Below, piece after piece: positions 701-46,298 of a stretch of DNA of 64,000 nt (position 1 is its first letter; each line of letters starts with the position of its first letter). The stretch is from contig CAZETE010000004.1 of assembly GCA_964515075.1 (NCBI GenBank), positions 3,353-67,352 on the forward strand, given 5' to 3'. The stretch is from an uncultured Actinomycetota bacterium (GTDB taxonomy: Bacteria > Actinomycetota > Geothermincolia > Geothermincolales > Geothermincolaceae). The position numbers were made by a program, and so were the translations under genes. The notes beneath the pieces are model-generated. The model saw nothing but the letters and a program-made list of their open reading frames with translations. It was not told where the DNA came from and did not search any database.

Positions 701-2806
701 TCACGGCCCCCTCACCACTTCCACCATCACGTACCCCCCCTCCACCAGGCGGAGGTTCGCCTCGAGCCCCTCGGCCAGGGGAAAGGATTCGAGGTCCTGG
801 TAGACGGGCGTCTCCTCCCGCCCCTGCCGCGTGCCGCGGACCAGCAGCACCTCGCCGCCCCGTTCCTCGAAATGGAAGGCCGCGCCGCCGGCCAGGGTGA
901 CGGCTTCCGCCGGGTCCCTCAAGCGGAAGGGGGAGGGGCGGCAGAAGACGAGGGTGGTGGCGCCGGGCCCCGCCGCCGCGGCCCCGGCCCCCCCGCCGAG
1001 GACGGGCTCGGCGTACCACGGGCCACCGTCCACGCCCCCCGTCCCGGTGATGAAGGAGCCCTCCCCGCCGGGCAGCGCGCCGACGGCCGGGTAGTTGGGA
1101 GCCAGGAAGTCGTAGACGGGGCGGGAGACGTCCACCGGCACCCACCCCACGCCGTAGAGATACGCCTGATTGAGGTAGCGGTCGAAGGAGAGGGCCGTGC
1201 GGGCCGGGATGCCCGCGGCGCGGCACAGGGCGGTGAAGGCCAGGGCGCGCTCGTAGTCGTCCCCCCCGCTTCCCCCGAGGACCCGCGCAACCGCCGCGCG
1301 CGCGTACTCCTCCCCCGCCGCGCCGGTGAGAGGCGGCGGGGGCAGGGCGCGGCTGGGGCAGGCGGTGAGGTAGAAGGCGCCGTGCCGGGCCAGGCGGAGC
1401 AGGACCGCCAGCATGTCCCCCCGCTCCTCCCCGGGGATGCCCTCCAGCACCGCGGCGATCTCCGGCAGGTCGCCGGGGACGCCGGCCATGGGCAGCAGGT
1501 AGGGCCGGGCCTCTTCCGGGAAGGAGTCCGGGAAGGGATAACGGCCTGCGGGGTCCAGGCGGAAGCCGTCCGAGCGGCGGGCCGCCGCCAGGACCTCCAC
1601 CTCCGTGCGGCCCGAGACCCCCCCGAGGACCAGGTCGAGCCCGTACGGCCCCCGGCGTTCCAGCTCCCAGGACACGCCGGCCGCTCCCGCCCTCACCCGG
1701 TAGTAGAACCATTCCGGCCTCAGGAAATCGGAGGACGGCAGGGAGAGGCGGAGGCCGGCCGGCCGGCCGCTCCCGCCCTCCACCCCGAACGCGGCCCGCG
1801 CCACCAGGCGCGAGGGCTGGTAGACCTGGTCGCCGCTGTAGTGGATGCCCGAGGCGGTCCTGGCGTAGACGGCCCCGCGCGCAGAGGCGCTGACGTGCTC
1901 CACCGGCTCCCCCAGCGAAGCGAGCTCCTCCTCCGTCCCGGCGGCGGGAGAGAGGCGGGTCAGCTTGCCGGAGTTCTTGCCCAGGAGGATGTCCTCCCCG
2001 CCGATGCGGGAGGCGGAGATGACGGGGTCGTCGCTCCGCCTGACCGCGACGAGCTCCCGGCCCTCCAGGCGGTACACGCCCCTGGCCGTCACCAGGTACA
2101 GCCCGCCGGCGGGCGCCTCCACCAGCTCCACCACGCGGAAGTTCTTCTCCCCCGGCACCTCCACGGGCAGCCCCCCGGCCTCTCCCGGCAGCAGGAGCTC
2201 CAGGCGGTTCTCCCACATCTCGCAGAGGAGCCCCCTCGAGGAGCCGGCCAGGCGCACCGGCGTGCCCGAAAGGCCGGCGCCGTCCCCCCAGGCCCTCTCC
2301 CAGCCGTCCCCGGACCGCCGGAAGACACCCCCGTCGCAGCCCGCGTAGACGCCGCCGGAGAGGTCGGCATGGACGGAGACGGCGACGCCCGGCACCGCTT
2401 CGGCGGCGCGTTCCCCCGCCCGGTCCATGCGCTGCAGCCCCCCCTCGCCCGCCGCCAGGTAGACGCATCCGGTCGCGAGGTCCTGCCGTTCTCCCGCGGC
2501 CTCGAGCGCGAAGTCCTCCACGCCGTCGCCGCAAGCCGGCAGGGGGGAGAGGTGGAGGCCGGGGTCGAGGGAGTACATCTCCCGGGAATAGGTCAGCACC
2601 CACAGGACGCCGCGGGCGTCCGCCTCCATCTTCTTGACCTCCAGGCCGGGGGGGAGCTCGAGGAAGGAGAAGGCCGGCCCGGCCTTGCCCGTCCCCCCCG
2701 CGCCGCCCCCGCGGCATCCCGGCGACGCGAGGAGCAGGGCCGCGGCCAGCGCGGCGGCCAGGCGGCTAGCGCGGCGTCTCCCTTCCATGACTCCATGATA
2801 CCCCAC
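701..2806 (-). CDS. lipoprotein with repeat/propeller-like N-terminal half and transglutaminase-like cysteine-protease domain
   Basis: A 701 aa ORF with a signal peptide and lipobox (LLLASPGC). The C-terminal half carries the transglutaminase-like core (..YARAAVARVLGGSGGDDYERALAFTALCRAAGIPARTALSFDRY..). The overlapping long ORFs on the other strand have no recognisable domains. Confidence 0.6.
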   Translation of the reverse strand: MGYHGVMEGRRRASRLAAALAAALLLASPGCRGGGAGGTGKAGPAFSFLELPPGLEVKKMEADARGVLWVLTYSREMYSLDPGLHLSPLPACGDGVEDFALEAAGERQDLATGCVYLAAGEGGLQRMDRAGERAAEAVPGVAVSVHADLSGGVYAGCDGGVFRRSGDGWERAWGDGAGLSGTPVRLAGSSRGLLCEMWENRLELLLPGEAGGLPVEVPGEKNFRVVELVEAPAGGLYLVTARGVYRLEGRELVAVRRSDDPVISASRIGGEDILLGKNSGKLTRLSPAAGTEEELASLGEPVEHVSASARGAVYARTASGIHYSGDQVYQPSRLVARAAFGVEGGSGRPAGLRLSLPSSDFLRPEWFYYRVRAGAAGVSWELERRGPYGLDLVLGGVSGRTEVEVLAAARRSDGFRLDPAGRYPFPDSFPEEARPYLLPMAGVPGDLPEIAAVLEGIPGEERGDMLAVLLRLARHGAFYLTACPSRALPPPPLTGAAGEEYARAAVARVLGGSGGDDYERALAFTALCRAAGIPARTALSFDRYLNQAYLYGVGWVPVDVSRPVYDFLAPNYPAVGALPGGEGSFITGTGGVDGGPWYAEPVLGGGAGAAAAGPGATTLVFCRPSPFRLRDPAEAVTLAGGAAFHFEERGGEVLLVRGTRQGREETPVYQDLESFPLAEGLEANLRLVEGGYVMVEVVRGP

Positions 2807-2870: not shown

Positions 2871-3275
2871 CTAGAGCGGGTCGGGGTTGCGGAAGCTGGG
2901 CTTGTAGGTGACCCTGCGCATCTTGTTGAAGACCACGTTCATGGAGCGGGAGAAGACGTCGGGCTTGAGCTCCTCCACCATCTTGGTGACGAAACGCTGG
3001 TTCTTGTTGAGCGATTCCGCGATGGCGGCGGGGTCCAGCTCGCCCATGAGCTTGGTCATGAACCCGGGGTTGGCGTTGATGGGGGCGGCCAGGGCCTTGG
3101 GGTCCAGTTCGGGGATGACCTTGCCCATGAACTCCCCGCTGTCGTTGACGATGCCGGCGACGATCTTGGGATCCAGCGTGGACAGCATGCCCTTGACCAT
3201 GCCGGCCAGCAGCTTGCCCATCAGGTTGGTGATGGTGCCGGCGATGGAACCCATCATCTCGAACAGTGCGCTCAT
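2871..3275 (-). CDS. small protein with four ~23-aa tandem repeats (LDPxxxAxxxNxNxxFxxKxxxE); function unknown
   Basis: A 134 aa ORF (MSALFEMMGS...) with internal repeats LDPKIVAGIVNDSGEFMGKVIPE / LDPKALAAPINANPGFMTKLMGE / LDPAAIAESLNKNQRFVTKMVEE / LKPDVFSRSMNVVFNKMRRV. Codon usage is typical of the host. It has a GGGAGGT ribosome-binding site and an AT-rich promoter region immediately upstream. Confidence 0.55.
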   Translation of the reverse strand: MSALFEMMGSIAGTITNLMGKLLAGMVKGMLSTLDPKIVAGIVNDSGEFMGKVIPELDPKALAAPINANPGFMTKLMGELDPAAIAESLNKNQRFVTKMVEELKPDVFSRSMNVVFNKMRRVTYKPSFRNPDPL

Positions 3276-3344: not shown

Positions 3345-3400
3345 ATTATAGTACACTCCGTCGGAAATTCCCACCCCAATTTAGCAGGCATTATGCTTCA
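3345..3400 (-). promoter_or_regulatory. AT-rich promoter region (minus strand) with a -10-like TACTATAAT for the repeat-protein gene
   Basis: The minus-strand sequence ...TTGGGGTGGGAATTTCCGACGGAGTGTACTATAATGG... lies about 70 nt upstream of the ATG. Local GC is far below the genome average. A ribosome-binding site GGGAGGT precedes the ATG. Confidence 0.4.
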
Positions 3401-3528
3401 GCTAGTTATATTGACTAGTTAGTACATATAACTTATAGTCATCAGGAGCCGCCTCTCGGGGCCCCGCACCCCCCTTCCCGCTAGGCCCGCCTCCCGGCGC
3501 CCCCGCCGCCGGGCCCCCGGCCGGCTCA

Positions 3529-3558
3529 TTGACATCGTACCGGCCTGCGCCCATAATT
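3529..3558 (+). promoter_or_regulatory. sigma70-like promoter (TTGACA-17nt-CATAAT) upstream of the homocysteine-synthesis genes
   Basis: TTGACA at 3529-3534, a 17 nt spacer, then CATAAT at 3552-3557. Confidence 0.45.
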
Positions 3559-3564: not shown

Positions 3565-3842
3565 TCCGGGTCGTTGATAAGTGAATATCCGAGCAAAGGC
3601 TGAGAAGGGGAGGAGTAGGTCCGCCGGTTGCGCTACAGAGAGCCGAGCCGAGGTTGAGAATCGGTGCGCGACAACGGGCCGAAGATGGCCCCGGAGCTTC
3701 CCGCCGAAAGGGCGACCGAGTAGGCGAGGACGGACGCCCCCGTCACCACGGGCTTAGGGTATCGCGCCGTAGGCGCCGCACCTGAACGGGACGGTTCTCC
3801 GGAGGGATCCGCCGGCTGGTGCGCCGCCGGTGGGTTTTTCAT
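3565..3842 (+). ncRNA. ~270 nt 5' leader RNA (candidate riboswitch or attenuator, class unassigned) ending in a terminator-like hairpin
   Basis: No credible ORF lies between the promoter at 3529 and the DUF39 start at 3932. A GC-rich hairpin CCGGC-9nt-GCCGG at about 3812-3830 is followed by TGGGTTTTTCATTT. Promoter, structured leader and terminator preceding a sulfur-amino-acid biosynthesis gene is the classic riboswitch architecture. I could not match the SAM-I/S-box consensus convincingly. Confidence 0.35.
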
Positions 3843-3931
3843 TTAAGAGAAGGGGTGGTGCGGATGCTGTGGATCATGCCCGCGCCCCCGAAAGGTCTTG
3901 ACGGGTCCGGAGGACGCGAGGAGGTGCGCGA

Positions 3932-5119
3932 ATGGCGAAGACGATCGCCGAGATAAACGAGAAGATACGGGCGGGCAGCGTGGTGGTGGTCACCGCCGAG
4001 GAGATCATCGACCTGGTCAAACGCGAAGGCGCCGAGGCCGCGGCGGAGAAGGTGGACGTGGTCACCACCGGCACCTTCGGCCCCATGTGCTCCTCGGGGG
4101 CCTTCATCAACCTGGGCCATTCCAAGCCGCGCATCAAGATCTCCCGGGCCACCCTCAACGGGGTGCCCGCCTACTCCGGCATCGCCGCGGTGGACGTCTA
4201 CATAGGGGCCACCGAGCTGCCCGAGAACGACCCCTTGAACGAGGTCTTCCCGGGCGAGTTCAAGTACGGCGGAGGGCACGTCATCGAGGACCTGGTGGCC
4301 GGGCGCAAGGTCAGGCTGGAGGCCCACTCCTACGGCACCGACTGTTACCCCAACCGCCGCTGGGAGAGGGACCTCACCCTTTCCGAGATGGGCGACGCCT
4401 TCCTCTTCAACCCGCGCAACGGCTACCAGAACTACAACGTGGCGGTGAACCGCTCCGACCGCATCATCTACACCTACATGGGCCTGCTCCGCCCCGAGCT
4501 GGGCAACGCCAACTACTGCTCGGCCGGGCAGCTCAGCCCGCTCCTGAACGACCCCTGCTTCCGCACCATCGGCGTGGGGACGCGCATCTTCCTGGGCGGC
4601 GGCGTGGGCTACGTGGCCTGGAACGGCACCCAGCACAACCCGGAGGTGCCCCGCACCGCCGGGGGCGCGCCGCGCCTGCCCTCGGGGACCCTGTCGGTCC
4701 TGGGCGACCTCAAGGGGATGAGCCCCCGCTGGCTGGTGGGCAACTCCTTCCTGGGCTACGGCGCCACCATGAGCGTGGGCCTGGGCATCCCCATCCCGGT
4801 GCTGGACGCGGAGGTGGCGCGGGCCGCCGCCGTCTCCGACGCGGAGCTGTTCGCCCCGGTGGTGGACTACTCCCTCGACTACCCGCAGGGCACCGGCAAG
4901 CTCCTGGGGGAGGTGAGCTACGCCCAGCTGAAGAGCGGCTCCTTCCGGCTGGAGGGCCGGGAGGTGCTGGCCGCCCCCCTCTCCAGCTACCCGCGGGCCC
5001 GGGAGATCGCCGAGACCTTGAAGGACTGGATAGAGAAGGGCGGGTTCCTGCTGGGCGAGCCGGCGCAGCTGCTGCCCTGCCCCGCCCGGGACGGGACCGC
5101 GCCCGCAGGAGGTGAATGA
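3932..5119 (+). CDS. DUF39 (COG1900) homocysteine-biosynthesis enzyme (L-aspartate-semialdehyde sulfurtransferase, MA1821-like)
   Basis: A 395 aa ORF (MAKTIAEINEKIRAGSVVVVTAEEIIDLVK...) typical of the DUF39 family. It is directly followed by, and overlaps by 4 nt, the gene for its known NIL-ferredoxin partner. Confidence 0.8.
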   Translation: MAKTIAEINEKIRAGSVVVVTAEEIIDLVKREGAEAAAEKVDVVTTGTFGPMCSSGAFINLGHSKPRIKISRATLNGVPAYSGIAAVDVYIGATELPENDPLNEVFPGEFKYGGGHVIEDLVAGRKVRLEAHSYGTDCYPNRRWERDLTLSEMGDAFLFNPRNGYQNYNVAVNRSDRIIYTYMGLLRPELGNANYCSAGQLSPLLNDPCFRTIGVGTRIFLGGGVGYVAWNGTQHNPEVPRTAGGAPRLPSGTLSVLGDLKGMSPRWLVGNSFLGYGATMSVGLGIPIPVLDAEVARAAAVSDAELFAPVVDYSLDYPQGTGKLLGEVSYAQLKSGSFRLEGREVLAAPLSSYPRAREIAETLKDWIEKGGFLLGEPAQLLPCPARDGTAPAGGE

Positions 5120-5526
5120 CCGTGCATCGCAAGGTGGTTCTGCATTTCCCCCACGAGCAGGTGGACAAGCCCATCGTCAGCCGCCTGGTCAAGGACTTCG
5201 ACATGGACTTCAACATCCTCAAGGCCCAGATAACCCCGCGGGAGGAGGGCATCCTGGTGCTGGACCTCATCGGGCCGGAGGAGAACTTCAACCGCAGCAT
5301 CCGCTACCTGGAGGAGCAGCGGGTGGTCATCCAGCCCCTGTCGCAGGACATCCGGCGGAACGATGAGCGCTGCACCCACTGCGGCGCCTGCACGGGCGTC
5401 TGCCCCTCCCGGGCGCTCTTCATCGACAGGAAGAGCATGGAGGTCCGCTTCGACGAGGAGGAGTGCGTGGCCTGCGAGCTGTGCGTGCGCGTCTGCCCGT
5501 CGCGGGCCATGGAGGTCCACTACTGA
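5116..5526 (+). CDS. NIL-domain / 2x[4Fe-4S] ferredoxin partner of the DUF39 enzyme (MA1822-like)
   Basis: A 136 aa ORF with an N-terminal NIL domain and two CxxCxxCxxxCP motifs (CTHCGACTGVCP, CVACELCVRVCP). Confidence 0.8.
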   Translation: MTVHRKVVLHFPHEQVDKPIVSRLVKDFDMDFNILKAQITPREEGILVLDLIGPEENFNRSIRYLEEQRVVIQPLSQDIRRNDERCTHCGACTGVCPSRALFIDRKSMEVRFDEEECVACELCVRVCPSRAMEVHY

Positions 5527-5563: not shown

Positions 5564-7003
5564 TCACAGCTGCTCGAAGGCGAGGGAGAGGCGCCGCAGG
5601 CACTCCTCCCGGCCCAGGATGTAGAGGACGTAGGGGAGGGGCGGGCCGGCGGAGCGCCCGGTCAGCGCGATGCGCAGGGGCATGAAGATGTCGCGGGGCT
5701 CGAGCCCCCTCTCCCTGAAGCCCCCGGTGATCTCGGCCAGCAGGACGCGGGCCTCCTCCAGGGCGGCGACCCGTCCCCCCTCCAGGGCGGCCCTGGCCGC
5801 TTCCATCACCTGCACGGCCCCGCGGCCGGAGAGGGCGGCCGCCATGTCCGGCTCCAGCGGGGGGAAGGCCGTGTAGACCTCCAGGTAGCGGGGGAGCTCG
5901 TTCAGCCGCTCCAGGTTGTCGCGGACGGATATGACCATGTCGGAGAAGAGCGGGTGGGCGGCCGCCGGGCCGGCGAAGGGGCGCGCCAGCTCCACCAGGC
6001 GGGCGGGGTCCGCGCGCCGGATGTGCTGCCCGTTGAACCAGTCCAGCTTGTGGGTGTCGAACACCGAGGGGCGGCGGGAGAGGGTCTCCAGCCGGAACTC
6101 CTTCACCAGCTCGGGCAGGGAGAGCACCTCGCGGCCCTCTCCCTCGGGAGACCAGGAGAGCAGCGCCAGGTGGTTGGCCACCGCCTCGGGCAGGTAGCCG
6201 GCGGAGCGGAACTCCCCCAGCGAGGCGGCCCCGTGGCGCTTGGAGAGCTTGGCGCCGTCGGCGCCCAGCAGCAGGGAGTGGTGGCAGAACGCGGGCACCC
6301 GGTAGCCGAGGGACCGGTAGAGCAGCACGTGGCGGGCGGTGTTGGTGAGATGGTCCTCGCCCCGCACCACGTGGGTGATGCCCATGGCGGCGTCGTCCAC
6401 CACCACCGAGAAGTTGAAGCCGGCCGAGCCGTCGGAGCGGAGGACGACGAAGTCCCCGATGACCTCGGAGGAGAAGGAGACCCTGCCGTGCAGCAGGTCC
6501 ACGAACTCGATGGGGCCGGGGGGGACGCGGAAGCGCAGCGCCGGCCTGCGCCCCTCGGCCTTGAGGCGCTCGCGGTCCTGCGCGGTGAGGGCGCGGCAGG
6601 TGCCGTCGTAGAGGGGCATGCGGCCCTCGGCCCGGGCCCGCTCCTTCCCGGCCTCCAGTTCCTCCGGGGTGCAGTAGCAGAAGTAGACCAGCCCCTTCTC
6701 GGCCAGGCGGCGCGCCTCCCGCAAGTAGAGATCGCGGCGTTCGCTCTGGCGGTAGGGGGCGTGGGGCCCGCCGACGTCCGGGCCCTCGTCCCAGTCCAGG
6801 CCCAGCCAGCGCAGGTCGGAGAGGATGGAGGCCTCGCACCCGGCCGAGGAGCGCCGGGGGTCGGTGTCCTCGATGCGCAGGACCATGGAGCCGCCCATGT
6901 GGCGGGCGTAGAGCCAGTTGAAGAGGGCGGTGCGGGCCGAGCCCAGGTGCAGTTCCCCGGTGGGGGAGGGGGCGAATCTGACGCGTATCTCGTCCATGGT
7001 CAC
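5564..7003 (-). CDS. gltX: glutamate--tRNA ligase
   Basis: A 479 aa ORF (MTMDEIRVRFAPSPTGELHLGSARTALFNWLYARH...) with the class I HIGH region and a full anticodon-binding domain. Confidence 0.9.
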   Translation of the reverse strand: MTMDEIRVRFAPSPTGELHLGSARTALFNWLYARHMGGSMVLRIEDTDPRRSSAGCEASILSDLRWLGLDWDEGPDVGGPHAPYRQSERRDLYLREARRLAEKGLVYFCYCTPEELEAGKERARAEGRMPLYDGTCRALTAQDRERLKAEGRRPALRFRVPPGPIEFVDLLHGRVSFSSEVIGDFVVLRSDGSAGFNFSVVVDDAAMGITHVVRGEDHLTNTARHVLLYRSLGYRVPAFCHHSLLLGADGAKLSKRHGAASLGEFRSAGYLPEAVANHLALLSWSPEGEGREVLSLPELVKEFRLETLSRRPSVFDTHKLDWFNGQHIRRADPARLVELARPFAGPAAAHPLFSDMVISVRDNLERLNELPRYLEVYTAFPPLEPDMAAALSGRGAVQVMEAARAALEGGRVAALEEARVLLAEITGGFRERGLEPRDIFMPLRIALTGRSAGPPLPYVLYILGREECLRRLSLAFEQL

Positions 7004-7162: not shown

Positions 7163-8536
7163 TTGAAGCCCAGGAGCGTTTTCGTCTGCAGCGAGTGCGG
7201 CGGCTCGGCGGTGAAGTGGCTGGGCCGCTGCCCGGAGTGCGGCGAGTACGGCACCATGCAGGAGGAGCGGGCCGCGCCGCCCCCCGGCTCCCCTTCCGGC
7301 CGGGCCCCCCTGCGCTCCGTCCGGCGCGACCCCCTCCCCCTCTCCTCGCTGGAGGGCGGCGGGGAGGAGCGCCGCTCCACCGGCCTGGCCGAGCTCGACC
7401 GGGTGCTGGGCGGGGGCATGGTGCGGGGCTCGGTGGTGCTCGTGGGGGGCGAGCCGGGCATCGGCAAGTCCACCCTGCTGCTGCAGGCGGCCAGCCGGCT
7501 GGCCGGGGCGGGGCGGCGGGTGCTCCTGGTCAGCGGCGAGGAGTCCTGCGCCCAGGTCCGCATGCGGGCGGAGCGCCTGGACGCCGTCTCGCCCGACCTC
7601 TTCCTCTTCTGCGAGACCGGGCTGCCCGAGGTGGTGGAGGCCGTCGAGGGCATGCTGCCCGAGGTGGTGGTGGTCGACTCCATCCAGACCCTGGCCAGCC
7701 CGGAGGTCGCCTCCCCCCCCGGGGGGGTGAGCCAGCTGCGGGAGTGCGCCCTGCGCCTGCAGGCGCTGGCCAAGGAGCGGGGCGTCACCACCTTCCTGGT
7801 GGGCCACGTCACCAAGGACGGCTCGCTGGCCGGGCCGCGCGTGCTCGAGCACATGGTGGACACGGTCCTCTACTTCGAGGGCGAACGCCACGGCTCCGTG
7901 CGCATCCTGCGCGCCTCCAAGAACCGCTTCGGCTCCGTCTCCGAGGTGGGCGTGTTCGAGATGGGCGACTCCGGCCTGCGGGAGGTGGAGGACCCCTCCC
8001 TCCTCTTCAGCCGCCTGCGCCCGGAAGGGGTCTCGGGCGTCGCCCCGGTCATCGCCATGGAGGGCAGGCGCCCCCTGCTGGTGGAGGTGCAGGCGCTGGT
8101 CACCCCCACCTCCCTGCCGGTGCCCAAGCGGGTGGCCTCCGGACTGGACCAGCGGCGCTTCGCCCTCGACCTGGCGGTGCTGGAGAAGCGGGCCCGCCTG
8201 AGCTTCTTCGACCACGACGTCTTCTGCGGCACCGCCGGCGGGCTGCAGGTGGCGGAGCCCGCGTGCGACCTGGCCATCTGCCTGGCGGTGGCCTCCTCCC
8301 GGCTGGACGCGCCCCTGCCCGCGCACCTCGCCTGCTGCGGCGAGGTCAGCCTGGCCGGGGAGGTGCGCCCGGTCTCCCGCACGGAAGAGCGGGTGCGCGA
8401 GGCCCGGCGGCTCGGCTTCTCCGGGATGCTGGTCCCCGAGGCCGGGGAGGCTCCGGAGGGCGGGCGGGGGTTCAGGCTCGAGCGGGTGGGCGACATCCGC
8501 GCCGCCCTGCGCGCCTGCGGCCTGGGCGCCGATTGA
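7163..8536 (+). CDS. radA: DNA repair protein RadA/Sms
   Basis: A 457 aa ORF with an N-terminal zinc ribbon (CSECGGSAVKWLGRCPECGEY), a RecA-like ATPase with Walker A (GEPGIGKST) and a Lon-protease-like C-terminus. Confidence 0.93.
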   Translation: MKPRSVFVCSECGGSAVKWLGRCPECGEYGTMQEERAAPPPGSPSGRAPLRSVRRDPLPLSSLEGGGEERRSTGLAELDRVLGGGMVRGSVVLVGGEPGIGKSTLLLQAASRLAGAGRRVLLVSGEESCAQVRMRAERLDAVSPDLFLFCETGLPEVVEAVEGMLPEVVVVDSIQTLASPEVASPPGGVSQLRECALRLQALAKERGVTTFLVGHVTKDGSLAGPRVLEHMVDTVLYFEGERHGSVRILRASKNRFGSVSEVGVFEMGDSGLREVEDPSLLFSRLRPEGVSGVAPVIAMEGRRPLLVEVQALVTPTSLPVPKRVASGLDQRRFALDLAVLEKRARLSFFDHDVFCGTAGGLQVAEPACDLAICLAVASSRLDAPLPAHLACCGEVSLAGEVRPVSRTEERVREARRLGFSGMLVPEAGEAPEGGRGFRLERVGDIRAALRACGLGAD

Positions 8537-8568: not shown

Positions 8569-10083
8569 TCAGGTCTTCCAGCGGACGCCGTCGCGGCGGT
8601 CCTCGAGCTTGATGCCCTTCTCCTCCAGGCGCGCCCGGATGTAGTCGGCGGACTCCCAGTCCCGGGCGGCGCGGGCGCGGGAGCGCAGCTCCACCAGCAG
8701 GTCGATTAGCTCCTCCGCCGGCGGCAGGTGCGCGCGCCCCGGGCGGGCCGCGGGCTCCGCGGCCTCCCGGGCTTCCCCCTCCGCCGCCGCCAGCCCGTAA
8801 GCCCGCACGCCCGCCTCGTCCAGCGGCGAGAAGAGGCCGAACACCCGGCACAGCTTGAGCAGGACGTCCCTGCCCTGCCCGGCCATGATGGTCCCTGCCG
8901 GGGTGGCGAAGAGGGCCTGCTCGTCCAGGTAGGTGTTGAGCTCGCGCGCCAGCTCGAAGACGGCGCCCAGGGCGCGGGCGGTGTTGAAGTCGTCGTCCAT
9001 GGCTTCCTCGAAGCGCCTCTCCACCTCGAGCAGGAACCCGGTGAGCTCCACCTCCCGCTCGGAGCGCGCCGGGGCCGTGATGCCTTCACGGTCGAGGAAC
9101 TCGCCCAGCGCGAAGAGGCAGTTCTCCAGGCGCTCGTAGGCCCGCTTGGCCTCCTCCAGGGCCTCCGGGCCGAAGTCGATGGGGCTGCGGTAGTGGGTCT
9201 GCAGCACCAGCATGCGCAGCGCGTCGGGGGGATACTTCTCCACGATCTCGCGGACGGTGACGATGTTCCCCAGCGACTTGGACATCTTCTCGTCGGAGAT
9301 GTTGACGAAGCCGTTGTGCATCCAGTGGCGGACGAAGGGCGACGAGCCGGAGTAGGCCTCGCTCTGGGCGATCTCGTTCTCGTGGTGGGGGAAGATGAGG
9401 TCCTGGCCGCCCCCGTGGATGTCGAAGCCCATCCCCAGGTGCTCCAGGGACATGGTGGAGCACTCGATGTGCCAGCCGGGGCGCCCCCGGCCCCAGGGGG
9501 AGTCCCAGGAGGGCTCGCCCGGCTTGGCGCTCTTCCACAGGGCGAAGTCGGCGGGGTGGCGCTTGCGCTCGTCCACCTCCACCCGCTCCCCCGCCCGCAT
9601 GTCCTCCAGGGAGCGCTTGGACAGCTTTCCGTACTGCGGGAAGGACTCCACCGAGAAGTAGACGTCCCCGTCCACCTCGTAGGCGTGCCCCTTCCCCACA
9701 AGGGCCGCGATCATCTCCGCCATCTTCTCCACGTAGGCGGTGGCGCGGGGGGTGACGTCGGGCGGCAGGACGTTCAAGGAGACCATGTCCCGCTTGAACT
9801 CCTCCTCGTAGCGGCGGGCCAGCTCCTCCGGGGTGGTGCCCTCCTCCGCGGCGCGGTTGATGATCTTGTCGTCCACGTCGGTGAAGTTCTGCACGTGGGT
9901 CACGGCGTACCCCCTGTGCAGCAGGTAGCGCTTGATGACGTCGAAGGTGAGGTAGGCCCGCCCGTTGCCCGCGTGGATGTAGTTGTAGACGGTGGGGCCG
10001 CAGACGTACATGCCGATGCGGCCCTCCTCCCGCGGCCGGAGCTCTTCCTTGCGGCCGGTCATGGTGTTGTAGGCCTTGATCAC
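8569..10083 (-). CDS. cysS: cysteine--tRNA ligase
   Basis: A 504 aa ORF ([40 protein letters not shown]...) with the KMSKS motif. Confidence 0.93.
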
Positions 10084-10862
10084 GGGGCCTCCTCCTCGAC
10101 CAGCCTGACCTCGGCCAGCTTCAACCCGTCCTCGGTCCGCCTGAGGCCGGCCTCGGCGTGGGAGAGCTCCTCCTCGGCCCTGCGCAGCTCCCCCTCGGTG
10201 CGCTCCAGCTCGTCACGGGTGCGCGCCAGCTCCTCCTGGGTCTCGATGAGGTGCTCCTCCAGGCTCCCGAGCCGCCGGTTGAAGCGCTCGAACATCTCCT
10301 GCACGGGGTCGGGGATGTTCTCGTGATGCAGGTCCACCACCCGCTTGCCGGCGCGGGCCACCAGCCGCCCGGGGACGCCCACCACGGTGCAGTCGGGGGG
10401 CACGTCCCGGACCACCACCGCGCCCGCGCCCACCCGGGCGCCGTCGCCGACGGTGATGGGCCCGAGCACCTTGGCCCCGGCGGCGATGACCACGTCCCGG
10501 CCGATGGTGGGGTGGCGCTTGCCCTTATCCTTGCCGGTGCCCCCCAGGGTCACGCCCTGGTAGAGGGTGGCCCCCTCGCCGACCTCGGCGGTCTCGCCGA
10601 TGACCACCCCCATGCCGTGGTCGATGAAGACGTTGCGGGCGATGCGCGCCCCGGGGTGGATCTCGATGCCGGTGACCAGCCGGTTGAAGTGGGAGAGCAG
10701 GCGGGGCAGCACCGGTATGCCCGCCCGCCACATGGCGTGGGCGAAGCGGTGCATCCACAGGGCGTGCAGGCCGGGGTAGGCCAGCATGATCTCGACGACG
10801 TTGGCGGCCGCCGGGTCGCGCTCGCGCACCGCCCCGATGTCGCTCCTCAAGAGGTCGAACAT
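10080..10862 (-). CDS. cysE: serine O-acetyltransferase with an unusual ~75-aa coiled-coil C-terminal extension
   Basis: The hexapeptide-repeat acyltransferase core is present (..[38 protein letters not shown]..). The C-terminal tail ...[55 protein letters not shown] is predicted coiled-coil. The gene overlaps the cysS start by 4 nt. Confidence 0.85.
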
Positions 10863-10895: not shown

Positions 10896-13373
<2,478 letters not shown>

Positions 13374-27095: not shown

Positions 27096-27298
27096 CGTCC
27101 TACCTCTGGCTCCCGTCAGCCGTTTCCTGACGCTACGTCATATCGCGGGCGGAAGAACGCCCTCCGACTCTATATCTTACTTCGGTTCGGGCGCTTTTGC
27201 CATTAAACCGTCCGACCCCTCTTTATGATACGCTTTTAGGGACCGGCTGTCCTTGCGCGACGACAAGCAGAGGGAGGTGTGCCGTGCTGGGAGGCTAC

Positions 27299-29188
27299 AT
27301 GGGCCGGGTGCTCGAGGTCGACCTGAGCACCGGCGAAACGCGTACTTTCTCACTATCCGACAGGATGCTGGAGCTCTACGTGGGCAGCAAGGGCCTGGGG
27401 GCCCGGCTGCTCTACGAGCTCCTGCCCCCCGGAGTGGACCCGCTGGGCCCGGAGAACGTCCTCATCGTCACCACCGCGCCCATGACCGGCACCGGGGCGC
27501 CCAGCGCCAACCGTTTCAACGTCACCTCCAAGTCGCCCGCCACCGGCCTCATCGTCAACTCCAACAGCGGCGGCAACTTCGGGGTGCACCTCAAGCGCTC
27601 GGGCTTCGACGCCCTGATCATCCGGGGCAGGGCGCCCAGGCTGAGCTGGCTGAAGATAGAGAACGGCGAGGCCTCCATCGAGGACGCCGCGCACCTGCGG
27701 GGCCTGGATACCGAGGAGACGCAGGAGAAGCTGCCCAAGAAGATGGGGAAGATGGTCATCGGGCCGGCGGGGGAGAACCTGGTCAAGTTCGCTTCCATCT
27801 TCTCCCAGGAGCGGGTGGCGGGCCGCGCCGGCATCGGCACGGTGATGGGCTCCAAGAACCTCAAGGCGGTGGCGGCGGGCGGCGACCGGAAGCCCCGGCT
27901 GCCGGACGAGGAGAAGTACAGGGAGGTCTGCAAGGGATGGCGGGAGGTGCTCAAGAGGCACCCGGCCACCGGGGAGGCCATGCCCGGCTACGGGACGGCC
28001 GGCTTCATCAACGTCTGCAACGCCACCCACACCATGCCCACCCGCAACTTCCAGCAGGGCCAGTTCCGCGCCATCGACGCGGTGAGCGGGGAGACCCTGG
28101 CCGAGACCGAGTTGGTCAAGAACTACGCCTGCTTCGGCTGCGTCATCGCCTGCGGACGCCGGGTGGAGGTGGACGGCAAGGTAGTCAAGGGCCCGGAGTA
28201 CGAGACCCTGGGGCTCTTCGGCCCCAACCTGGGCAACGCCGACCTCAAGGCCATCCTGCGCTGGAACTACGAGTGCGACCTGCTGGGCATGGACGCCATC
28301 AGCGTGGGCAACATCCTCGGCTTCGCCATGGAGGCGGGGGAGAGGGGCCTGCTCCCGACGGACTTGAGGTTCGGCAGGACCGACGGCATCTCCCGGGCCA
28401 TCGAGGACATGGCCTTCAGGCGGGGGCTGGGCGACGAAATGGCCGAGGGGGTGCGCTCCCTCTCCCGCAAGTACGGGGGGGAGGAGTTCGCCATCCAGTC
28501 CAAGGGGCTGGAGATACCCTCCTACGAACCCCGGGGCGCGGTGGGCCACGGGCTGGGATACGCCGTCTCCAACCGCGGCGGCTGCCACCTGGCCGGCGGG
28601 TACATGATCTACCTGGAGGCCAACGGGCCGGTCACCGTCGACCCCCTGGCGACCACCGGCAAGGCCGGATTGACCATCCTCAACCAGACCGTGCTGGAGG
28701 CCGTGAGCAACCTGGGGTGCTGCAACTTCACCGTCTTCACCATGCTCCACCCGCTGCTGCTGGAGTGGAACGCTCGCTCGCGGCTGGTGGCCAAGGCGCT
28801 GTCGAAGGGCTTCCTCTACTCGGGGGACCTGCTGGGCGCGGCCCTGTCCCTGCCCGACTGGACCATGCCCATCCCGGCCCCCTTCAGCATGTTCCCCCAG
28901 GTGAAGGCGCACGCCGTGTGCACCGGCACCAACTTCACCATGGGCAAGTTCCTCGCCCTGGGGCAGCGGGCCAACAACATCGACCGCCTCTTCAATGCGC
29001 GCGAGGGATTCACCGCCAAGGACGACACCCTGCCCCGCCGCTTCACCGACGAGCTGCAGCGCATGGACGAGCCCGGCTCCATCGTGCGCCTGGAGAGGAT
29101 GAAGAAGCGCTACTACCTGCTGCGCGGCTGGAAGGCGGACGGCACGCCCCGGGACTCGACCTTGCGGCGGCTGAAGATAGAGAAGTAG
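27299..29188 (+). CDS. aor: aldehyde:ferredoxin oxidoreductase (tungsten/pterin-dependent AOR family)
   Basis: An AOR N-terminal domain (MGRVLEVDLSTGE...) with conserved (..APSANRFNVTSKSPATG..) and cluster/pterin-binding regions. Alternative in-frame starts exist at GTG 27281 and ATG 27197. Confidence 0.88.
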   Translation: MGRVLEVDLSTGETRTFSLSDRMLELYVGSKGLGARLLYELLPPGVDPLGPENVLIVTTAPMTGTGAPSANRFNVTSKSPATGLIVNSNSGGNFGVHLKRSGFDALIIRGRAPRLSWLKIENGEASIEDAAHLRGLDTEETQEKLPKKMGKMVIGPAGENLVKFASIFSQERVAGRAGIGTVMGSKNLKAVAAGGDRKPRLPDEEKYREVCKGWREVLKRHPATGEAMPGYGTAGFINVCNATHTMPTRNFQQGQFRAIDAVSGETLAETELVKNYACFGCVIACGRRVEVDGKVVKGPEYETLGLFGPNLGNADLKAILRWNYECDLLGMDAISVGNILGFAMEAGERGLLPTDLRFGRTDGISRAIEDMAFRRGLGDEMAEGVRSLSRKYGGEEFAIQSKGLEIPSYEPRGAVGHGLGYAVSNRGGCHLAGGYMIYLEANGPVTVDPLATTGKAGLTILNQTVLEAVSNLGCCNFTVFTMLHPLLLEWNARSRLVAKALSKGFLYSGDLLGAALSLPDWTMPIPAPFSMFPQVKAHAVCTGTNFTMGKFLALGQRANNIDRLFNAREGFTAKDDTLPRRFTDELQRMDEPGSIVRLERMKKRYYLLRGWKADGTPRDSTLRRLKIEK

Positions 29189-29210
29189 GCGTGGCGGCGG
29201 AGGAGGGGCC

Positions 29211-29459
29211 TTGGTAGAGGTGAAGCTCTTCGCCACCCTGCGCCGGGAGGCCGGGGAGAAAGGCTTCGAGACGGACGCTGCTTCGGTGAAAGACGTGCTG
29301 CGCGAGCTGGCCGCCCGCTACGGCCCCTCCTTCACCGGGCAGTTGAAGAAGGCCACCGTCCTGGTGAACGGGCGCAACGCCGCCCACCTCAAGGGCCAGC
29401 GGACCCGCCTCGCCGACGGCGACGTGGTCAGCATCTTCCCGCCCTTGGCCGGAGGGTGA
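29211..29459 (+). CDS. MoaD/ThiS-like ubiquitin-fold sulfur-carrier protein
   Basis: An 82 aa ORF (MVEVKLFATLRREAGEK...DGDVVSIFPPLAGG) ending in a Gly-Gly C-terminus. It lies immediately downstream of aor. Confidence 0.7.
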   Translation: MVEVKLFATLRREAGEKGFETDAASVKDVLRELAARYGPSFTGQLKKATVLVNGRNAAHLKGQRTRLADGDVVSIFPPLAGG

Positions 29460-31281: not shown

Positions 31282-32685
31282 GTGCAGCCGCTAATGGATC
31301 TCAAGGACAAGCGAGTGGTGGTCATCGGCACGGGCATCGGAGGCTCGGGCGTCGCCGCCCTGCTGGCCAAGGAGGGCGCGAAGGTGCTGGTGCTGGAGCG
31401 CAACGGCTTCTGGGGAGGCAAGGCTGCCAGCTTCGAGCGCGACGGCTTCATCTACGATACCGGGGTGCACTGGGTGGCCCGGGGCGAGAAGGGCCCGCTG
31501 GGCGAGATCAGCCGCGAAGTCGGAGGGAGCCTGCGCTTCAAGGCGCTGGAGCCGGCCATGAAGCTGATGGTGGGGGGGCGCTCCACCCTGCTCACCCAGG
31601 AACTCGGCAAGCCGGAAGAGCTGGACCGCATCCTTTCCGAGCTGGAGGTGGCCGAGGGGGAGCGGGACAAGGCCAAAGGCTTCTTTCTGGACGTGATGCG
31701 GCCGCGCACCGCGGAGGAACTGGCCGCCCTGGAGGAGGTGCCGGCGACGGAGTACCTGAGCCAGTTCACCTCGGACCCTCAGTTCATGGTGTTCGTCTCC
31801 GGCATCATCGGCATGCACCTGACCATCTCCCCCAAGCAGGCCTCCGCCTCGGAGTTCATCTACTGCTTCGAGACCCAGGCGCGCAACCAGAACCTCTCCT
31901 ACCCCATCGGCGGCATTGGGGCCATACCCAAGGACTACCTGGACGCCCTGGAGCGCGCGGGCGGGGAGGTGCGCTACGATACCGAGGTCGCCCGCGTGGT
32001 GGTGGAGGACGGCAGGGCCACGGGCGTGGAGACCGCCGCGGGCGAGATGATCCCGGCGGACGTGGTCATCAGCAACAACGGCATCAAGGAGTCGGTGGAG
32101 CTGGCCGGGCGGCACAACTTCCCCGACGACTACGTGAAGATGGTGGACAACCTGCGCCTCTCGCTGGCCGCCGTCAGCGTCAAGTACGCCCTCGACGCCG
32201 AGGTGGTCAAGACCCACCTCAATTACTACTTCCCCACCCCCGACAAGATGGACAGCCAGACGGGCATCTTCTTCCCGGTGCCCTCGGCCGCCGACCCCGG
32301 CCTGGCGCCCCCCGGCTGCCAGCTGGTGCTGGCCGGCGCCCCGACCTCACCCAACCTGGACGACCCGGTGGCGGCCGACGCCGCCTGCGAGGAGGTCCTG
32401 GACAAGATCGAGGCCACCATGCAGTACCTCTATCCGGACATCGAGGAGCACGTGGTCTGGAAGCTGCGCACCAACACCCGGTACTGCGCCGACATCTCCG
32501 GGCGCAAGACCGGCGAGGTCATCGGGGTGGCCCAGAACCGCTTCCAGGTGGGCGGAAACCGCCCCGGGAACGTGACCCCGCTTCAGGGCTTCTACCTGGT
32601 GGGCTCGGACGTCGGCGGGCGCGGCGTGGGCATGGAGATGGCCGCGGACAGCGCCCTCATCCTCTGGCGCGAGCTCAAGGCCTGA
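31282..32685 (+). CDS. FAD-dependent oxidoreductase, phytoene-desaturase (CrtI/COG1233) family, paralogue 1
   Basis: An N-terminal Rossmann GxGxxG (VVVIGTGIGGSGVAALLAKEGAKVLVLER) and CrtI-family-like architecture over 467 aa. Confidence 0.8.
   Translation: MQPLMDLKDKRVVVIGTGIGGSGVAALLAKEGAKVLVLERNGFWGGKAASFERDGFIYDTGVHWVARGEKGPLGEISREVGGSLRFKALEPAMKLMVGGRSTLLTQELGKPEELDRILSELEVAEGERDKAKGFFLDVMRPRTAEELAALEEVPATEYLSQFTSDPQFMVFVSGIIGMHLTISPKQASASEFIYCFETQARNQNLSYPIGGIGAIPKDYLDALERAGGEVRYDTEVARVVVEDGRATGVETAAGEMIPADVVISNNGIKESVELAGRHNFPDDYVKMVDNLRLSLAAVSVKYALDAEVVKTHLNYYFPTPDKMDSQTGIFFPVPSAADPGLAPPGCQLVLAGAPTSPNLDDPVAADAACEEVLDKIEATMQYLYPDIEEHVVWKLRTNTRYCADISGRKTGEVIGVAQNRFQVGGNRPGNVTPLQGFYLVGSDVGGRGVGMEMAADSALILWRELKA
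32074..32659 (+). repeat. 586-bp tract identical to 33551..34136 (3' part of paralogue 1)
   Basis: I compared the two copies directly. They match without a mismatch from aacaacggcatcaaggag... to ...gacagcgccctca. A further ~128 bp upstream (31893-32020 vs 33370-33497) is near-identical. Confidence 0.85.
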
Positions 32686-32758: not shown

Positions 32759-34162
32759 GTGATCGAGAAGATGGGGCTTGAGGACAAGCGGATCATCGTC
32801 ATCGGCACGGGTATCGGCGGGGCGGGAGTGGCGGCGCTGCTGGCCGGGGAAGGCGCGAAGGTGCTGGTACTGGAGCGCAACGGCTACCCCGGCGGCAAGG
32901 CCGCCAGCTTCCAGCGCGAGGGCTACACCTACGACACCGGGGTGCACTGGGTGGCCCGGGGCGAGAAGGGCCCGCTGGGAGAGATCAGCCGCAAGGTCGG
33001 GGGAAATCTCCGCTTCAGGGTGATGGAGCCGGCCATCTACGTGGACGTGGGCGGAAGGCGCACCTCCATGACGCAGGACATGGACGACGAGGTAATGCTG
33101 GAGAAGGCCTTCGATGACCTGGGGGTCGCGCCCGAGAACCGCGAGGGGGCCAGGGCCTTCTTCCGGGACCTCCTGAAGCCCCGCTCCGAGGAGGAACTGG
33201 GGGAGCTGGACTCCTACCCGGTGTCCGACTACCTCATGCAGTTCACCGACGACCCCCAGTTCTTCGTGCTGATATCCGGGTTTATCGGCATGTACCTGGT
33301 GATCGCCCCCAGGCAGGCCTCCACCGGCGAGTTCATCCTCTGCTACTCGGAACAGATACGCGAGCGCAACCTCTCCTACCCCATCGGCGGTATTGGGGCC
33401 ATACCCAAGGACTACCTGGACGCCCTGGAGCGCGCGGGCGGCGAGGTGCGCTACGATACCGAGGTCGCCCGCGTGGTGGTGGAGGACGGCAGGGCCGCGG
33501 GCGTGGAGCTGGAGTCCGGGGAGGTCATCTCCGGCGACGTCATCATCAGTAACAACGGCATCAAGGAGTCGGTGGAGCTGGCCGGGCGGCACAACTTCCC
33601 CGACGACTACGTGAAGATGGTGGACAACCTGCGCCTCTCGCTGGCCGCCGTCAGCGTCAAGTACGCCCTCGACGCCGAGGTGGTCAAGACCCACCTCAAT
33701 TACTACTTCCCCACCCCCGACAAGATGGACAGCCAGACGGGCATCTTCTTCCCGGTGCCCTCGGCCGCCGACCCCGGCCTGGCGCCCCCCGGCTGCCAGC
33801 TGGTGCTGGCCGGCGCCCCGACCTCACCCAACCTGGACGACCCGGTGGCGGCCGACGCCGCCTGCGAGGAGGTCCTGGACAAGATCGAGGCCACCATGCA
33901 GTACCTCTATCCGGACATCGAGGAGCACGTGGTCTGGAAGCTGCGCACCAACACCCGGTACTGCGCCGACATCTCCGGGCGCAAGACCGGCGAGGTCATC
34001 GGGGTGGCCCAGAACCGCTTCCAGGTGGGCGGAAACCGCCCCGGGAACGTGACCCCGCTTCAGGGCTTCTACCTGGTGGGCTCGGACGTCGGCGGGCGCG
34101 GCGTGGGCATGGAGATGGCCGCGGACAGCGCCCTCAACCTCTGGCGTCACCTGACGAAATAG
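32759..34162 (+). CDS. FAD-dependent oxidoreductase, phytoene-desaturase (CrtI/COG1233) family, paralogue 2 (tandem duplicate)
   Basis: It is the same length as paralogue 1. The N-terminal halves have diverged while the C-terminal ~195 aa are identical to paralogue 1. Confidence 0.8.
   Translation: MIEKMGLEDKRIIVIGTGIGGAGVAALLAGEGAKVLVLERNGYPGGKAASFQREGYTYDTGVHWVARGEKGPLGEISRKVGGNLRFRVMEPAIYVDVGGRRTSMTQDMDDEVMLEKAFDDLGVAPENREGARAFFRDLLKPRSEEELGELDSYPVSDYLMQFTDDPQFFVLISGFIGMYLVIAPRQASTGEFILCYSEQIRERNLSYPIGGIGAIPKDYLDALERAGGEVRYDTEVARVVVEDGRAAGVELESGEVISGDVIISNNGIKESVELAGRHNFPDDYVKMVDNLRLSLAAVSVKYALDAEVVKTHLNYYFPTPDKMDSQTGIFFPVPSAADPGLAPPGCQLVLAGAPTSPNLDDPVAADAACEEVLDKIEATMQYLYPDIEEHVVWKLRTNTRYCADISGRKTGEVIGVAQNRFQVGGNRPGNVTPLQGFYLVGSDVGGRGVGMEMAADSALNLWRHLTK
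33551..34136 (+). repeat. 586-bp tract identical to 32074..32659 (3' part of paralogue 2)
   Basis: See the paired feature. The identical minus-strand 64-aa ORFs in the track (32226..32420 and 33703..33897) reflect the same duplication. Confidence 0.85.
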
Positions 34163-41136: not shown

Positions 41137-43425
<2,289 letters not shown>

Positions 43426-43468
43426 CCAACGCCCAGGGTCCTTGACGGAAGAGGAAGAGGGAAAGGAG

Positions 43469-44050
43469 ATGACCGTGCCGAGCGTAAAGGGAACCAGGAC
43501 CGAAGTGAACCTGCTCACCGCCTTCGCGGGGGAGTCGCAGGCCAGGAACCGCTACAGCTACTTCGCCAGCAAGGCCAAGAAGGAGGGGTACGTGCAGATG
43601 TCGCTGGTCTTCGAGGAGACCGCCAACCAGGAGAAGGAGCATGCCAAGCGGCTCTTCAAGTTCCTCGAGGGCGGCGAGGTCGAGGTGGCGGCGGCCTTCC
43701 CGGCGGGGGTCATCGGCGCCACCGCCGAGAACCTCAAGGCGGCGGCGGCCGGCGAGAACTACGAGTGGACCGACATGTATCCGTCCTTCGCCGCGACGGC
43801 GCGGGAGGAGGGCCTGGAGGAGATCGCCGTGGTGTTCGAGTCCATCGCGGTGGCCGAGAAGCAGCACGAACGGCGCTACCTGGGCCTGCTGGCCAACCTG
43901 GAGGCCGGCACCGTCTTCAAGAAGGACCAGCCGGTCAAGTGGCGCTGCCTCAACTGCGGCTACGTCCACGAGGGCGAAGGCGTTCCCGACAAGTGCCCCG
44001 CCTGCGACCACCCGCGGGACTACTTCGAGCTGCTGGCCGAGAACTGGTAG
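43469..44050 (+). CDS. rbr: rubrerythrin
   Basis: A ferritin-like di-iron four-helix bundle (..EKEHAKRLF.., ..EKQHERRY..) plus a C-terminal rubredoxin-like CxxC...CxxC (CLNCGY...CPACDHP). Confidence 0.88.
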
Positions 44051-46220: not shown

Positions 46221-46270
46221 GCCCCTGACCGCGCCGGCGCCGGCACAACGGCCCGCCCGGCCCGCAAGTC

Positions 46271-46298
46271 GCAGGTTCGAGTCCTGCCAGGCGTGCCA
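46271..46298 (+). other. tRNA 3'-end-like fragment (T-arm GCAGG-TTCGAGT-CCTGC, acceptor strand, discriminator, CCA); putative integration-site remnant
   Basis: gcaggttcgagtcctgccaggcgtgcca reproduces the canonical T-stem/loop and 3' acceptor strand ending in CCA. I could not fold a matching 5' half upstream. GC content collapses immediately downstream. Confidence 0.4.

Follow-up and report, generated by a model that had tools for sequence, protein, structure and literature searches.

Organization of the hcyBio locus

In the present work, we analyzed a stretch of 64,000 nt (64 kb) from contig CAZETE010000004.1 of an uncultured bacterium, in the following called the window, with respect to a gene pair predicted to serve sulfide-dependent homocysteine synthesis and to the leader preceding it. 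Positions refer to the window, and all features of the leader and the gene pair are located on the plus strand. The first gene, hcyBio (3932..5119), codes for a protein of 395 aa assigned to COG1900a/DUF39, the catalytic subunit of L-aspartate-semialdehyde sulfurtransferase (in short, L-ASST), with cysteines at positions 53 and 138. The second gene (5116..5526) codes for an MA1822-like subunit of 136 aa comprising a NIL domain and a 2×[4Fe-4S] ferredoxin part. As a gene pair, this is an ordinary, further member of a known and widespread kind. The less expected part of the locus is the leader, which appears to combine an atypical methionine T-box with a short upstream open reading frame (ORF) stacked behind it; this second element would sequester the ribosome binding site (RBS) of hcyBio, occurs across phyla, and is apparently undescribed.

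Both ORFs show a third-position GC content (GC3) of 0.95–0.96, which is of the coding type for a genome with about 70% GC. Using Pfam, the product of 3932..5119 was covered end to end by PF01837 (HcyBio, formerly DUF39, COG1900; E 2.1e-150, profile positions 1–349 of 349). The product of 5116..5526 matched the NIL family PF09383 at its N-terminus (E 3.3e-18) as well as Fer4 families, and contains the motif CxxCxxCxxxCP twice, both complete, corresponding to two 4Fe-4S motifs. The genes overlap by the four nucleotides ATGA within GGAGGTGAATGACC, with the ATG start codon at 5116–5118 and the TGA stop codon at 5117–5119, and a GGAGG is present inside hcyBio a few bases upstream of the second start. 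These features confirm the adjacency and the 4-nt overlap of a DUF39 and a NIL/4Fe-4S ferredoxin gene that an earlier sequence-only reading of this DNA had described, and the genes are predicted to form a classical translationally coupled pair. Also in 106 of 148 related loci, the hcyBio gene is immediately followed by a NIL-ferredoxin homologue in the same orientation.

The C-terminal, NIL-like domain of MetN, the ATPase of a methionine importer, binds methionine. The NIL domain of the second subunit resembles this MetN domain (PDB 2QSW, 2QRR, and 3DHX; E ~3e-4), and a ligand-binding role is thus possible for it. For the COG1900 domain, a structure search found no solved structure.

Assignment to the homocysteine-forming subfamily

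In the homocysteine enzymes of the family (COG1900a, L-ASST, MA1821), two cysteines, Cys54 and Cys131, are nearly universal; in MA1821, Cys54 is essential and Cys131 is the persulfide site, while in the coenzyme M synthase MMP16 (COG1900d), the COG1900 domain is interrupted by a ferredoxin domain (PMC12068725). Searching 1.84 billion cluster representatives exhaustively with HMMER yielded 991 family members, and 13 full-length representatives were aligned with the hcyBio protein of the window. Representative P0123 (504 aa, HcyBio domain plus CBS pair), to which the window protein is 51% identical, served as stand-in for MA1821 and MJ0100, and the equivalence of the cysteines rests on this proxy. 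Cys53 within TTGTFGPMCSSG (GTFGPMCSSG; shared motif GTFxxMCSSG) aligned with the cysteine of P0123 and of close relatives, and the motif YGTDCYP around Cys138 was likewise present at the aligned position of P0121, P0123, P0125, and P0128. The C-terminal CBS pair, which is not required in bacteria, was absent from the window protein in the Pfam scan; likewise, Dde_3007 has no CBS domains (PMC4045070).

Since PF01837 takes in several subfamilies, the protein might be a non-homocysteine COG1900 paralogue, e.g. an MMP16/ComF-like coenzyme M synthase or a sulfurtransferase for another aldehyde. The NCBI model for MMP16, TIGR03287, indeed gave a partial match (E 7.8e-35), and L-ASST is partly able to replace MMP16 in Methanosarcina acetivorans (PMC12068725). 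However, this match reached 120 bits compared to a cut-off of 364. In the alignment, the MMP16-like P0265 has neither of the two cysteines and shows a Cys-rich ferredoxin-like insertion (read from the alignment, as the Pfam scan shows HcyBio only), whereas the window protein has both cysteines and no such insertion. Furthermore, a NIL-ferredoxin partner adjoins, the leader contains a methionine-specific T-box, SAM-I riboswitches precede orthologues (see below), and no coenzyme M genes are found among the window annotations. We consider a paralogue of this kind very improbable; the window protein is predicted to be of the homocysteine type (COG1900a) and not of the coenzyme M type. The homology to the MA1821/MA1822 system assumed in the sequence-only reading is thus upheld by the COG1900a domain, both cysteines, and the NIL-ferredoxin partner, and clustering of the DUF39 protein with non-homocysteine paralogues, which that reading had named as the outcome speaking against it, does not apply in view of the cysteines, the missing insertion, and the TIGR03287 score.

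With high confidence, we assign to the pair the role of a sulfide-dependent homocysteine synthase. As judged from the characterized homologues, the COG1900a/DUF39 subunit would put sulfur onto aspartate semialdehyde, and the NIL-[4Fe-4S]2 ferredoxin subunit would supply electrons. Two points have to be set against this assignment. For the host organism, the enzyme role is predicted from sequence and homologues, and no ORF of the 64-kb window matched COG2122 (ApbE-like/UPF0280), the third component of the Desulfovibrio system.

A methionine T-box leader without a conserved UGGN bulge

A sigma-70-like promoter (TTGACA-17 nt-CATAAT; 11 of 12 consensus matches) is located at 3529..3557. The region contained three promoter-like sites compared to 0.2 expected from shuffled sequences, and in several related leaders, TTGAC-type boxes were readable (by eye, uncounted) at the corresponding position. 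Further upstream, the short AT-rich stretch agctagttatattgactagttagtacatataacttatagtcatcagg at 3400..3450, with two divergent promoter-like sites, lies between an ORF at 2871..3275 (minus strand) and the hcyBio leader.

Downstream of the promoter, positions 3593..3762 matched the T-box family RF00230 of Rfam (68.1 bits, E 1.1e-14) with Stems I and II as well as the IIA/B region. In the Infernal alignment, the specifier codon AUG (Met) is located at 3685..3687 in the specifier loop. The Stem I features AGAGA, GUUGAGA (AG bulge, distal loop), and GAAG-AUG-G are kept in at least 14 relatives, and the context GAA-N-AUG-G is conserved ahead of hcyBio in every readable Geothermincolia-type locus. 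An RNAalifold consensus of 14 leaders contains a Stem III-like helix GGGUAUCGCGCC...GGCGCCGCACCU (3757..3783), the pairs of which are kept with some compensatory changes. It is followed by an intrinsic-terminator-like hairpin detected by the terminator scan, AUCCGCCGGC ... GCCGGUGGGU and then UUUUUCAUUU (3807..3845), with the GC-rich hairpin at 3807..3835. The base of this stem covaries in the 14 leaders (five to six double changes at two pairs, RNAalifold), and a U-rich tract follows the hairpin in all of them. By its sequence, the combination of hairpin and U-run looks like ordinary transcription attenuation.

Because the specifier of the T-box is AUG, the operon would be tied to methionine supply, and methionine-linked T-box control of the operon is likely. 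In a first step, the T-box with its AUG specifier would read tRNA-Met and thereby control read-through of the intrinsic terminator; we infer this sensing of tRNA charging from the anatomy of the leader. A connection to methionine is also seen in orthologues of the gene: SAM-I riboswitches (RF00162; 81–96 bits) were found upstream of 14 hcyBio orthologues being 65–67% identical to the window protein. Methionine regulation of the pair is thus borne out by the AUG specifier and by these riboswitches. None of the S-adenosylmethionine (SAM) families SAM, SAM-II to SAM-VI, and SMK matched the window leader in Rfam searches with permissive E-values. In the related loci L095–L100, L105, L106, and L124 (loci are numbered with the prefix L), the SAM-I riboswitch is located 280–390 nt upstream of hcyBio and not directly in front of it. 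Two further riboswitches, a c-di-GMP-II riboswitch near a Solincola hcyBio locus (L008, 7965..8050, minus strand) and a TPP riboswitch near a Chloroflexia hcyBio locus (L061, 8480..8591, plus strand), are unrelated to the finding.

Some observations do not fit a standard T-box. The RF00230 scores were below the gathering score of 93, both for the window (68.1 bits) and for L004, L005, L006, L008, and L011 (71–83 bits); scanning the complete window against Rfam at gathering scores gave no match, and the T-box was found only with E-value thresholds. Moreover, the conserved UGGN acceptor-binding bulge was not found between Stem III and the terminator in the window and the related leaders, and therefore a defining part of the T-box mechanism is missing or displaced. 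An antiterminator-like fold can be drawn, the bulge of which varies (GUAAA, GUGAUA, GAGAGA, UUCUC, and others) and contains no UGG; the sole conserved GGUGGU is located downstream of the terminator. Folded as a single sequence, the entire leader did not surpass shuffled sequences (z 0.30).

A conserved upstream ORF between terminator and hcyBio

Behind the terminator, a conserved block contains the Shine-Dalgarno (SD)-like sequence AAGGGGUGGUG (3850..3860), followed by an upstream ORF of 30 codons (MLWIMPAPP..., 3864..3956), which starts with AUG CUG UGG AUC AUG (3864..3878) and ends inside hcyBio in another frame. Across lineages, GGAGGUGGUG or GGUGGUGGUG is kept upstream of the short ORF. 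Its internal Met codon at 3876..3878 is conserved and is the invariant one among the internal Met codons. Of 154 loci, 30 carry the peptide motif ahead of hcyBio, compared to 0.015 expected per locus (binomial P ~5e-24, a value that is overstated since the loci are related). The nucleotide core was present in 33 loci and the window, i.e. in 34 leaders, and the element extends over five labelled phyla. It also occurs without a T-box Stem I, as in the Actinomycetota metagenome-assembled genome (MAG) L007 and in L093, L017, L021, L061, and others; loci labelled Deltaproteobacteria, Dehalococcoidia/Chloroflexia, Omnitrophota, and Spirochaetota carry it without a T-box. A relaxed core pattern gave 28 other matches in the loci, most of them read as inside coding sequence. 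Because all of these are in a random-looking context, the element is specific to hcyBio leaders among the sequences compared.

Several observations are in accordance with translation of the element. The ORF has a strong SD in front of it. In 24 of the 34 leaders, the conserved Met codon is preceded by an in-frame AUG at a distance of 12–18 nt, compared to none of the 34 in the control frame, and most of the remaining leaders have an in-frame UUG, GUG, or CUG start. The spacing between SD and core varies (9, 11, 12, or 14 nt), as added codons would cause it, and the ORF shows synonymous variation for isoleucine (AUC/AUA/AUU) and leucine (CUA/UUA/CUG). A peptide in another frame (M-D-H-A...) was rejected as main frame due to an SD-AUG spacing that is too long outside Geothermincolia, and because frame A always has its own start. 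No Rfam family matched the upstream ORF element even at permissive E-values, and an open-literature search for the peptide motif (MLWIM, LWIM, LWTM) gave no relevant match.

The distance between terminator and upstream ORF differs among the Geothermincolia-type leaders. In the window, L004, L005, L008, L084, and L085, the gap is only 15–25 nt, and a non-conserved purine-rich insert of 60–330 nt is present between both elements in L006 (445..740), in L010 and L012 (~5795..5920), and in L086, L089, L090, and L091.

Complementarity of the RBS to the upstream ORF and proposed attenuation

The RBS GGAGGUGCGCGA and the start codon AUG of hcyBio (GGAGGUGCGCGAAUG; 3920..3934), with GGAGG 7 nt before the ATG at 3932, are complementary to the stretch CAUGCCCGCGCCCCC (3875..3889), which starts at the upstream ORF's conserved Met codon (RNAduplex). 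The start codon of hcyBio is matched by the CAU that immediately precedes the conserved G. Since the register differs between clades, pairwise duplex energies compared to shuffled sequences and a hand-specified helix were used. On average, the RNAduplex energies were better than those of shuffled sequences (mean z -1.9), with 13 of 29 leaders at or below 0.05. Chloroflexota-type leaders form near-perfect helices of 10–11 bp (AUGCGUUGCCC/GGGCAACGCAU), and a hand-specified helix of 11 bp was paired in 91% of the cells of these leaders compared to 23–50% when slid. Geothermincolia-type leaders use other arms, CCUACCUCC/GGAGGUAGG or CCUCCCG/CGGGAGG. Because the arms of both types differ and yet pair, complementarity to the RBS is kept despite the sequence changes between clades. 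In L017 (~3660..3790), L021 (~5890..6000), and L163 (~770..910), the upstream ORF has an SD (GGUGGUGGG or GGAGGUGGUGAACA) that is itself complementary to CCCACCAC or UGUUCACUACCUUU just upstream of the hcyBio RBS, which suggests a three-way competition of pairings in these loci.

From this anatomy, we tentatively propose, as the simplest interpretation, that the upstream ORF acts by methionine-sensitive translational attenuation. In a second step, on the read-through transcript, the hcyBio RBS would be paired with the stretch starting at the Met codon of the upstream ORF. Pausing of the ribosome at the Met codon 3876..3878 under scarcity of Met-tRNA would hold this pairing open and allow translation of hcyBio. 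In a more general form, put forward with equal caution and at somewhat less than even odds, ORFs of the type M-(x0-2)-[LVI]-[W/C]-[ITV]-M may represent an undescribed methionine-responsive attenuator of at least five labelled phyla, which in Geothermincolia would be placed behind a methionine T-box without UGGN bulge, resulting in a two-tier check of tRNA-Met, first at transcription and then at translation.

The structural evidence does not speak for this proposal throughout. The duplex of the GC-rich window itself was not better than those of shuffled sequences (fraction 0.15). RNAalifold on MAFFT alignments of the region from upstream ORF to RBS gave no long-range consensus across or within clades, and covariation of the upstream ORF-RBS helix within clades was weak, with one double change. 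The ORF also has just one invariant internal Met codon and thus fewer regulatory codons than classical attenuators. Finally, an A precedes UGG in 27 of 28 leaders, at a third codon position, and variants with a change from W to C (UGG to UGU) preserve a second AUG in the other frame. Both point to constraints at the nucleotide level that are unexplained by the peptide model.

Such constraints would be expected if the element were not translated but acted as a small structured RNA that directly senses uncharged (initiator) tRNA-Met or SAM by binding it and thereby frees or hides the RBS. The conserved GGUGGU is complementary to the tRNA 3′ end ACCA, and Infernal aligned the stretch in L005 to the T-box sequence and antiterminator helix of RF00230. 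There is also a precedent in the SAM-I riboswitch of Xanthomonas, where tRNA-fMet is bound at an anti-SD platform without T-box features (PMC7270179). However, RNAalifold found no conserved internal helices, and the element is without an Rfam family at permissive E-values. The variable spacing between SD and core is always filled by an in-frame start codon, and the element occurs independently of a T-box Stem I. All in all, we regard an RNA sensor as rather unlikely, although deserving serious attention.

The GGUGGU motif can also be explained differently for Geothermincolia: the element could be the displaced discriminator of the same T-box, acting translationally as in actinobacterial ileS T-boxes, with the supposed terminator being Stem III only. 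Translational T-boxes in Actinobacteria have reportedly been described by Sherwood et al. in 2015. In addition to the sole conserved GGUGGU lying in the element, an A1-like helix can be formed by its purine-rich 5′ and pyrimidine-rich 3′ sides, with pairing of the pyrimidine stretch to the SD as the alternative. A displaced discriminator is nevertheless improbable in our view: the distance from Stem I–III to the element ranges from ~15 to ~375 nt, L007 and other phyla have the element on its own, and the intervening hairpin always has a U-run and covaries like a terminator.

Host lineage and genomic neighborhood

The nearest hcyBio proteins are encoded by metagenome sequences (99–80% identity); those of Candidatus Geothermincola primus (79%), Candidatus Solincola (74–76%), and other Actinomycetota MAGs come next. 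The gene order hcyBio-NIL-ferredoxin-gltX-radA-cysS is common to the window and a contig of Candidatus Geothermincola primus (JACVIX01), with 64–72% amino acid identity for NIL-ferredoxin, gltX, radA, and cysS. MAG CAWFDJ01 shows 90% identity for hcyBio, ~85% for gltX and radA, and 93% for NIL-ferredoxin, while cysS was present only as fragments on the part of the contig that was fetched. Geothermincola belongs to the Actinomycetota, class Candidatus Geothermincolia. A Firmicutes-like host, as previously supposed for this DNA, is thus not supported, as synteny and identity place it with Candidatus Geothermincola/Solincola within the Actinomycetota; the host is predicted to be an anaerobic high-GC member of Candidatus Geothermincolia. 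The window also encodes an aldehyde:ferredoxin oxidoreductase (region 27197..29459, plus strand) directly followed by a MoaD/SAMP-like small sulfur-carrier protein (29211..29459), as well as rubrerythrin and katG at 41230..44050. Aldehyde:ferredoxin oxidoreductase, rubrerythrin, and katG would correspond to the gene content of an oxygen-exposed anaerobe.

Downstream of the gene pair, gltX (5564..7003, minus strand) is oriented convergently, followed by radA (7163..8536, plus strand), cysS (8569..10083, minus strand), cysE (10080..10862, minus strand), and clpC (10896..13373, minus strand). The position next to a gltX-cysE-cysS block, as noted in the sequence-only reading, holds true with respect to nearness; there is, however, no shared operon, since the block is on the opposite strand and radA is interposed. 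Because gltX is convergent on the minus strand and radA is located between gltX and cysS/cysE, the gene pair is outside any Cys or translation operon. The region clpC-radA-...-gltX-cysE-cysS is conserved and of the housekeeping type and does not represent a sulfur operon. Further genes of the window are lysS, greA, those for two ADP-forming acyl-CoA synthetase-like proteins and a DRTGG protein, glyA, dapA, recG, and others.

By domain scans, none of metX/A, metY/Z, and metB/C was found within the 64-kb window, a range that cannot establish absence from the whole genome. The homocysteine synthase could therefore be genuine and still be one of several routes, with canonical genes for direct sulfhydrylation or trans-sulfuration encoded elsewhere, as the evidence covers 64 kb of the genome. 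The operon would then be no indication of a methionine pathway independent of homoserine esters, whereas the sequence-only reading had derived independence from O-acetylhomoserine and cystathionine. On the other hand, the canonical genes are all absent from the window, and the operon's tight, methionine-specific control points to a main role in biosynthesis. We judge additional routes to be unlikely, with some weight remaining on them.

Further features of the window lie outside the hcyBio locus. A low-GC island (46200..48200; 41–57% GC compared to ~70% in the genome) contains a gene for a TPR-repeat membrane protein (46304..47314, minus strand) and, in a toxin-antitoxin-like arrangement, a pair of small ORFs that overlap (47550..47921 and 47918..48196, minus strand); the island was probably acquired horizontally. 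A single ORF of 519 aa (51244..52803, minus strand) combines RNase III (Ribonuclease_3 and dsrm) with a complete DegV domain; this is either a fusion of an unusual kind or a pair of genes with no stop codon separating them. At 31282..32685 and 32759..34162 (plus strand), tandem flavin amine-oxidase-like paralogues of 467 aa with the same domain layout are encoded.

Distribution and comparison with known systems

Taken together, we are fairly confident that the locus is best explained by a two-subunit homocysteine synthase of a Geothermincolia host under two-step methionine-linked control.

With respect to the enzyme, the pathway is not unusual for bacteria. Scanning a genome collection with hcyBio revealed at least 500 bacterial species-level loci, with Chloroflexota, Desulfobacterota, Bacillota, Omnitrophota, and others at 62–67% identity among the matches listed. 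MAGs labelled Deltaproteobacteria, Desulfobacterales, or Desulfobacteraceae contain orthologues that are 65–67% identical to the window protein, and close homologues are already publicly annotated as 'homocysteine biosynthesis protein' or 'L-aspartate semialdehyde sulfurtransferase'. Dde_3007 (DUF39) is needed for homocysteine synthesis in Desulfovibrio alaskensis (PMC4045070). In D. vulgaris, mutation of DUF39, NIL/ferredoxin, or COG2122 results in methionine auxotrophy, and the pathway does not proceed via homoserine; for Dehalococcoides, the same homocysteine route has been predicted (PMC5764234). Describing the system as archaeal-type in the sense of exceptional is thus not justified, given these bacterial loci and the genetic proof in Desulfovibrio (PMC5764234, PMC4045070). 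For the gene pair, the relevance lies mainly in annotation: the DUF39 route extends to deep-branching anaerobic Actinomycetota, and failure to find metX, metY, and metB in genomes of such kind therefore gives no ground for scoring methionine auxotrophy.

Compared to MA1821/MA1822 of M. acetivorans and also to MJ0100, the window shows the same two-gene architecture with full-length COG1900, both cysteines, and a NIL-2×[4Fe-4S] partner. The archaeal proteins MA1821/MJ0100 have a C-terminal CBS pair as SAM-sensing domain (PMC4045070), whereas the window protein has none. Unlike MA1821/MA1822, the window pair belongs to a bacterial host, and its control is predicted at the RNA level by T-box and upstream ORF. 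The Desulfovibrio proteins, i.e. DUF39 (Dde_3007, DvMF_1464, DVU2938), NIL/ferredoxin DvMF_0262, and COG2122 DvMF_0044, represent the same CBS-less bacterial form; judged by the locus tags, their genes are scattered across the genome, whereas DUF39 and NIL-ferredoxin are in one operon in the window.

With methionine-specific T-boxes such as the metICFE-mdh leader of Staphylococcus aureus (PMC3771891), the window leader shares the Stem I AG bulge, the distal loop, and the AUG specifier loop, in addition to Stem II, IIA/B, Stem III, the downstream terminator, and control of methionine biosynthesis genes. It differs by its score below the gathering score, the lack of a conserved UGGN bulge, the second element that follows, hcyBio as the controlled gene, and its occurrence in Actinomycetota. 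The SAM-I riboswitches (RF00162) at hcyBio orthologues serve the same gene with the same logic, repression when methionine or SAM is plentiful, using a different sensor; Rfam detected no SAM aptamer in the window.

To our knowledge, no leader-peptide-type methionine sensor has been known before, and an open-literature search gave no match for one. If correct, the proposed attenuator would be the first known sensor of this type, and the leader would in addition represent a T-box variant controlling a gene without the standard acceptor-binding motif. In the cat and erm resistance genes, leader-peptide translational attenuation is brought about by a paused ribosome that opens the RBS helix. The upstream ORF of hcyBio shows the same anatomy as cat/erm leaders and classical amino-acid attenuators, with the RBS predicted to lie in a helix whose 5′ arm is inside a short leader ORF. 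In contrast to cat/erm, the proposed signal is the supply of methionine (Met-tRNA) and not an antibiotic. In contrast to the classical attenuators, the hcyBio element has only one to three Met codons, and its output would be translational instead of transcription termination.

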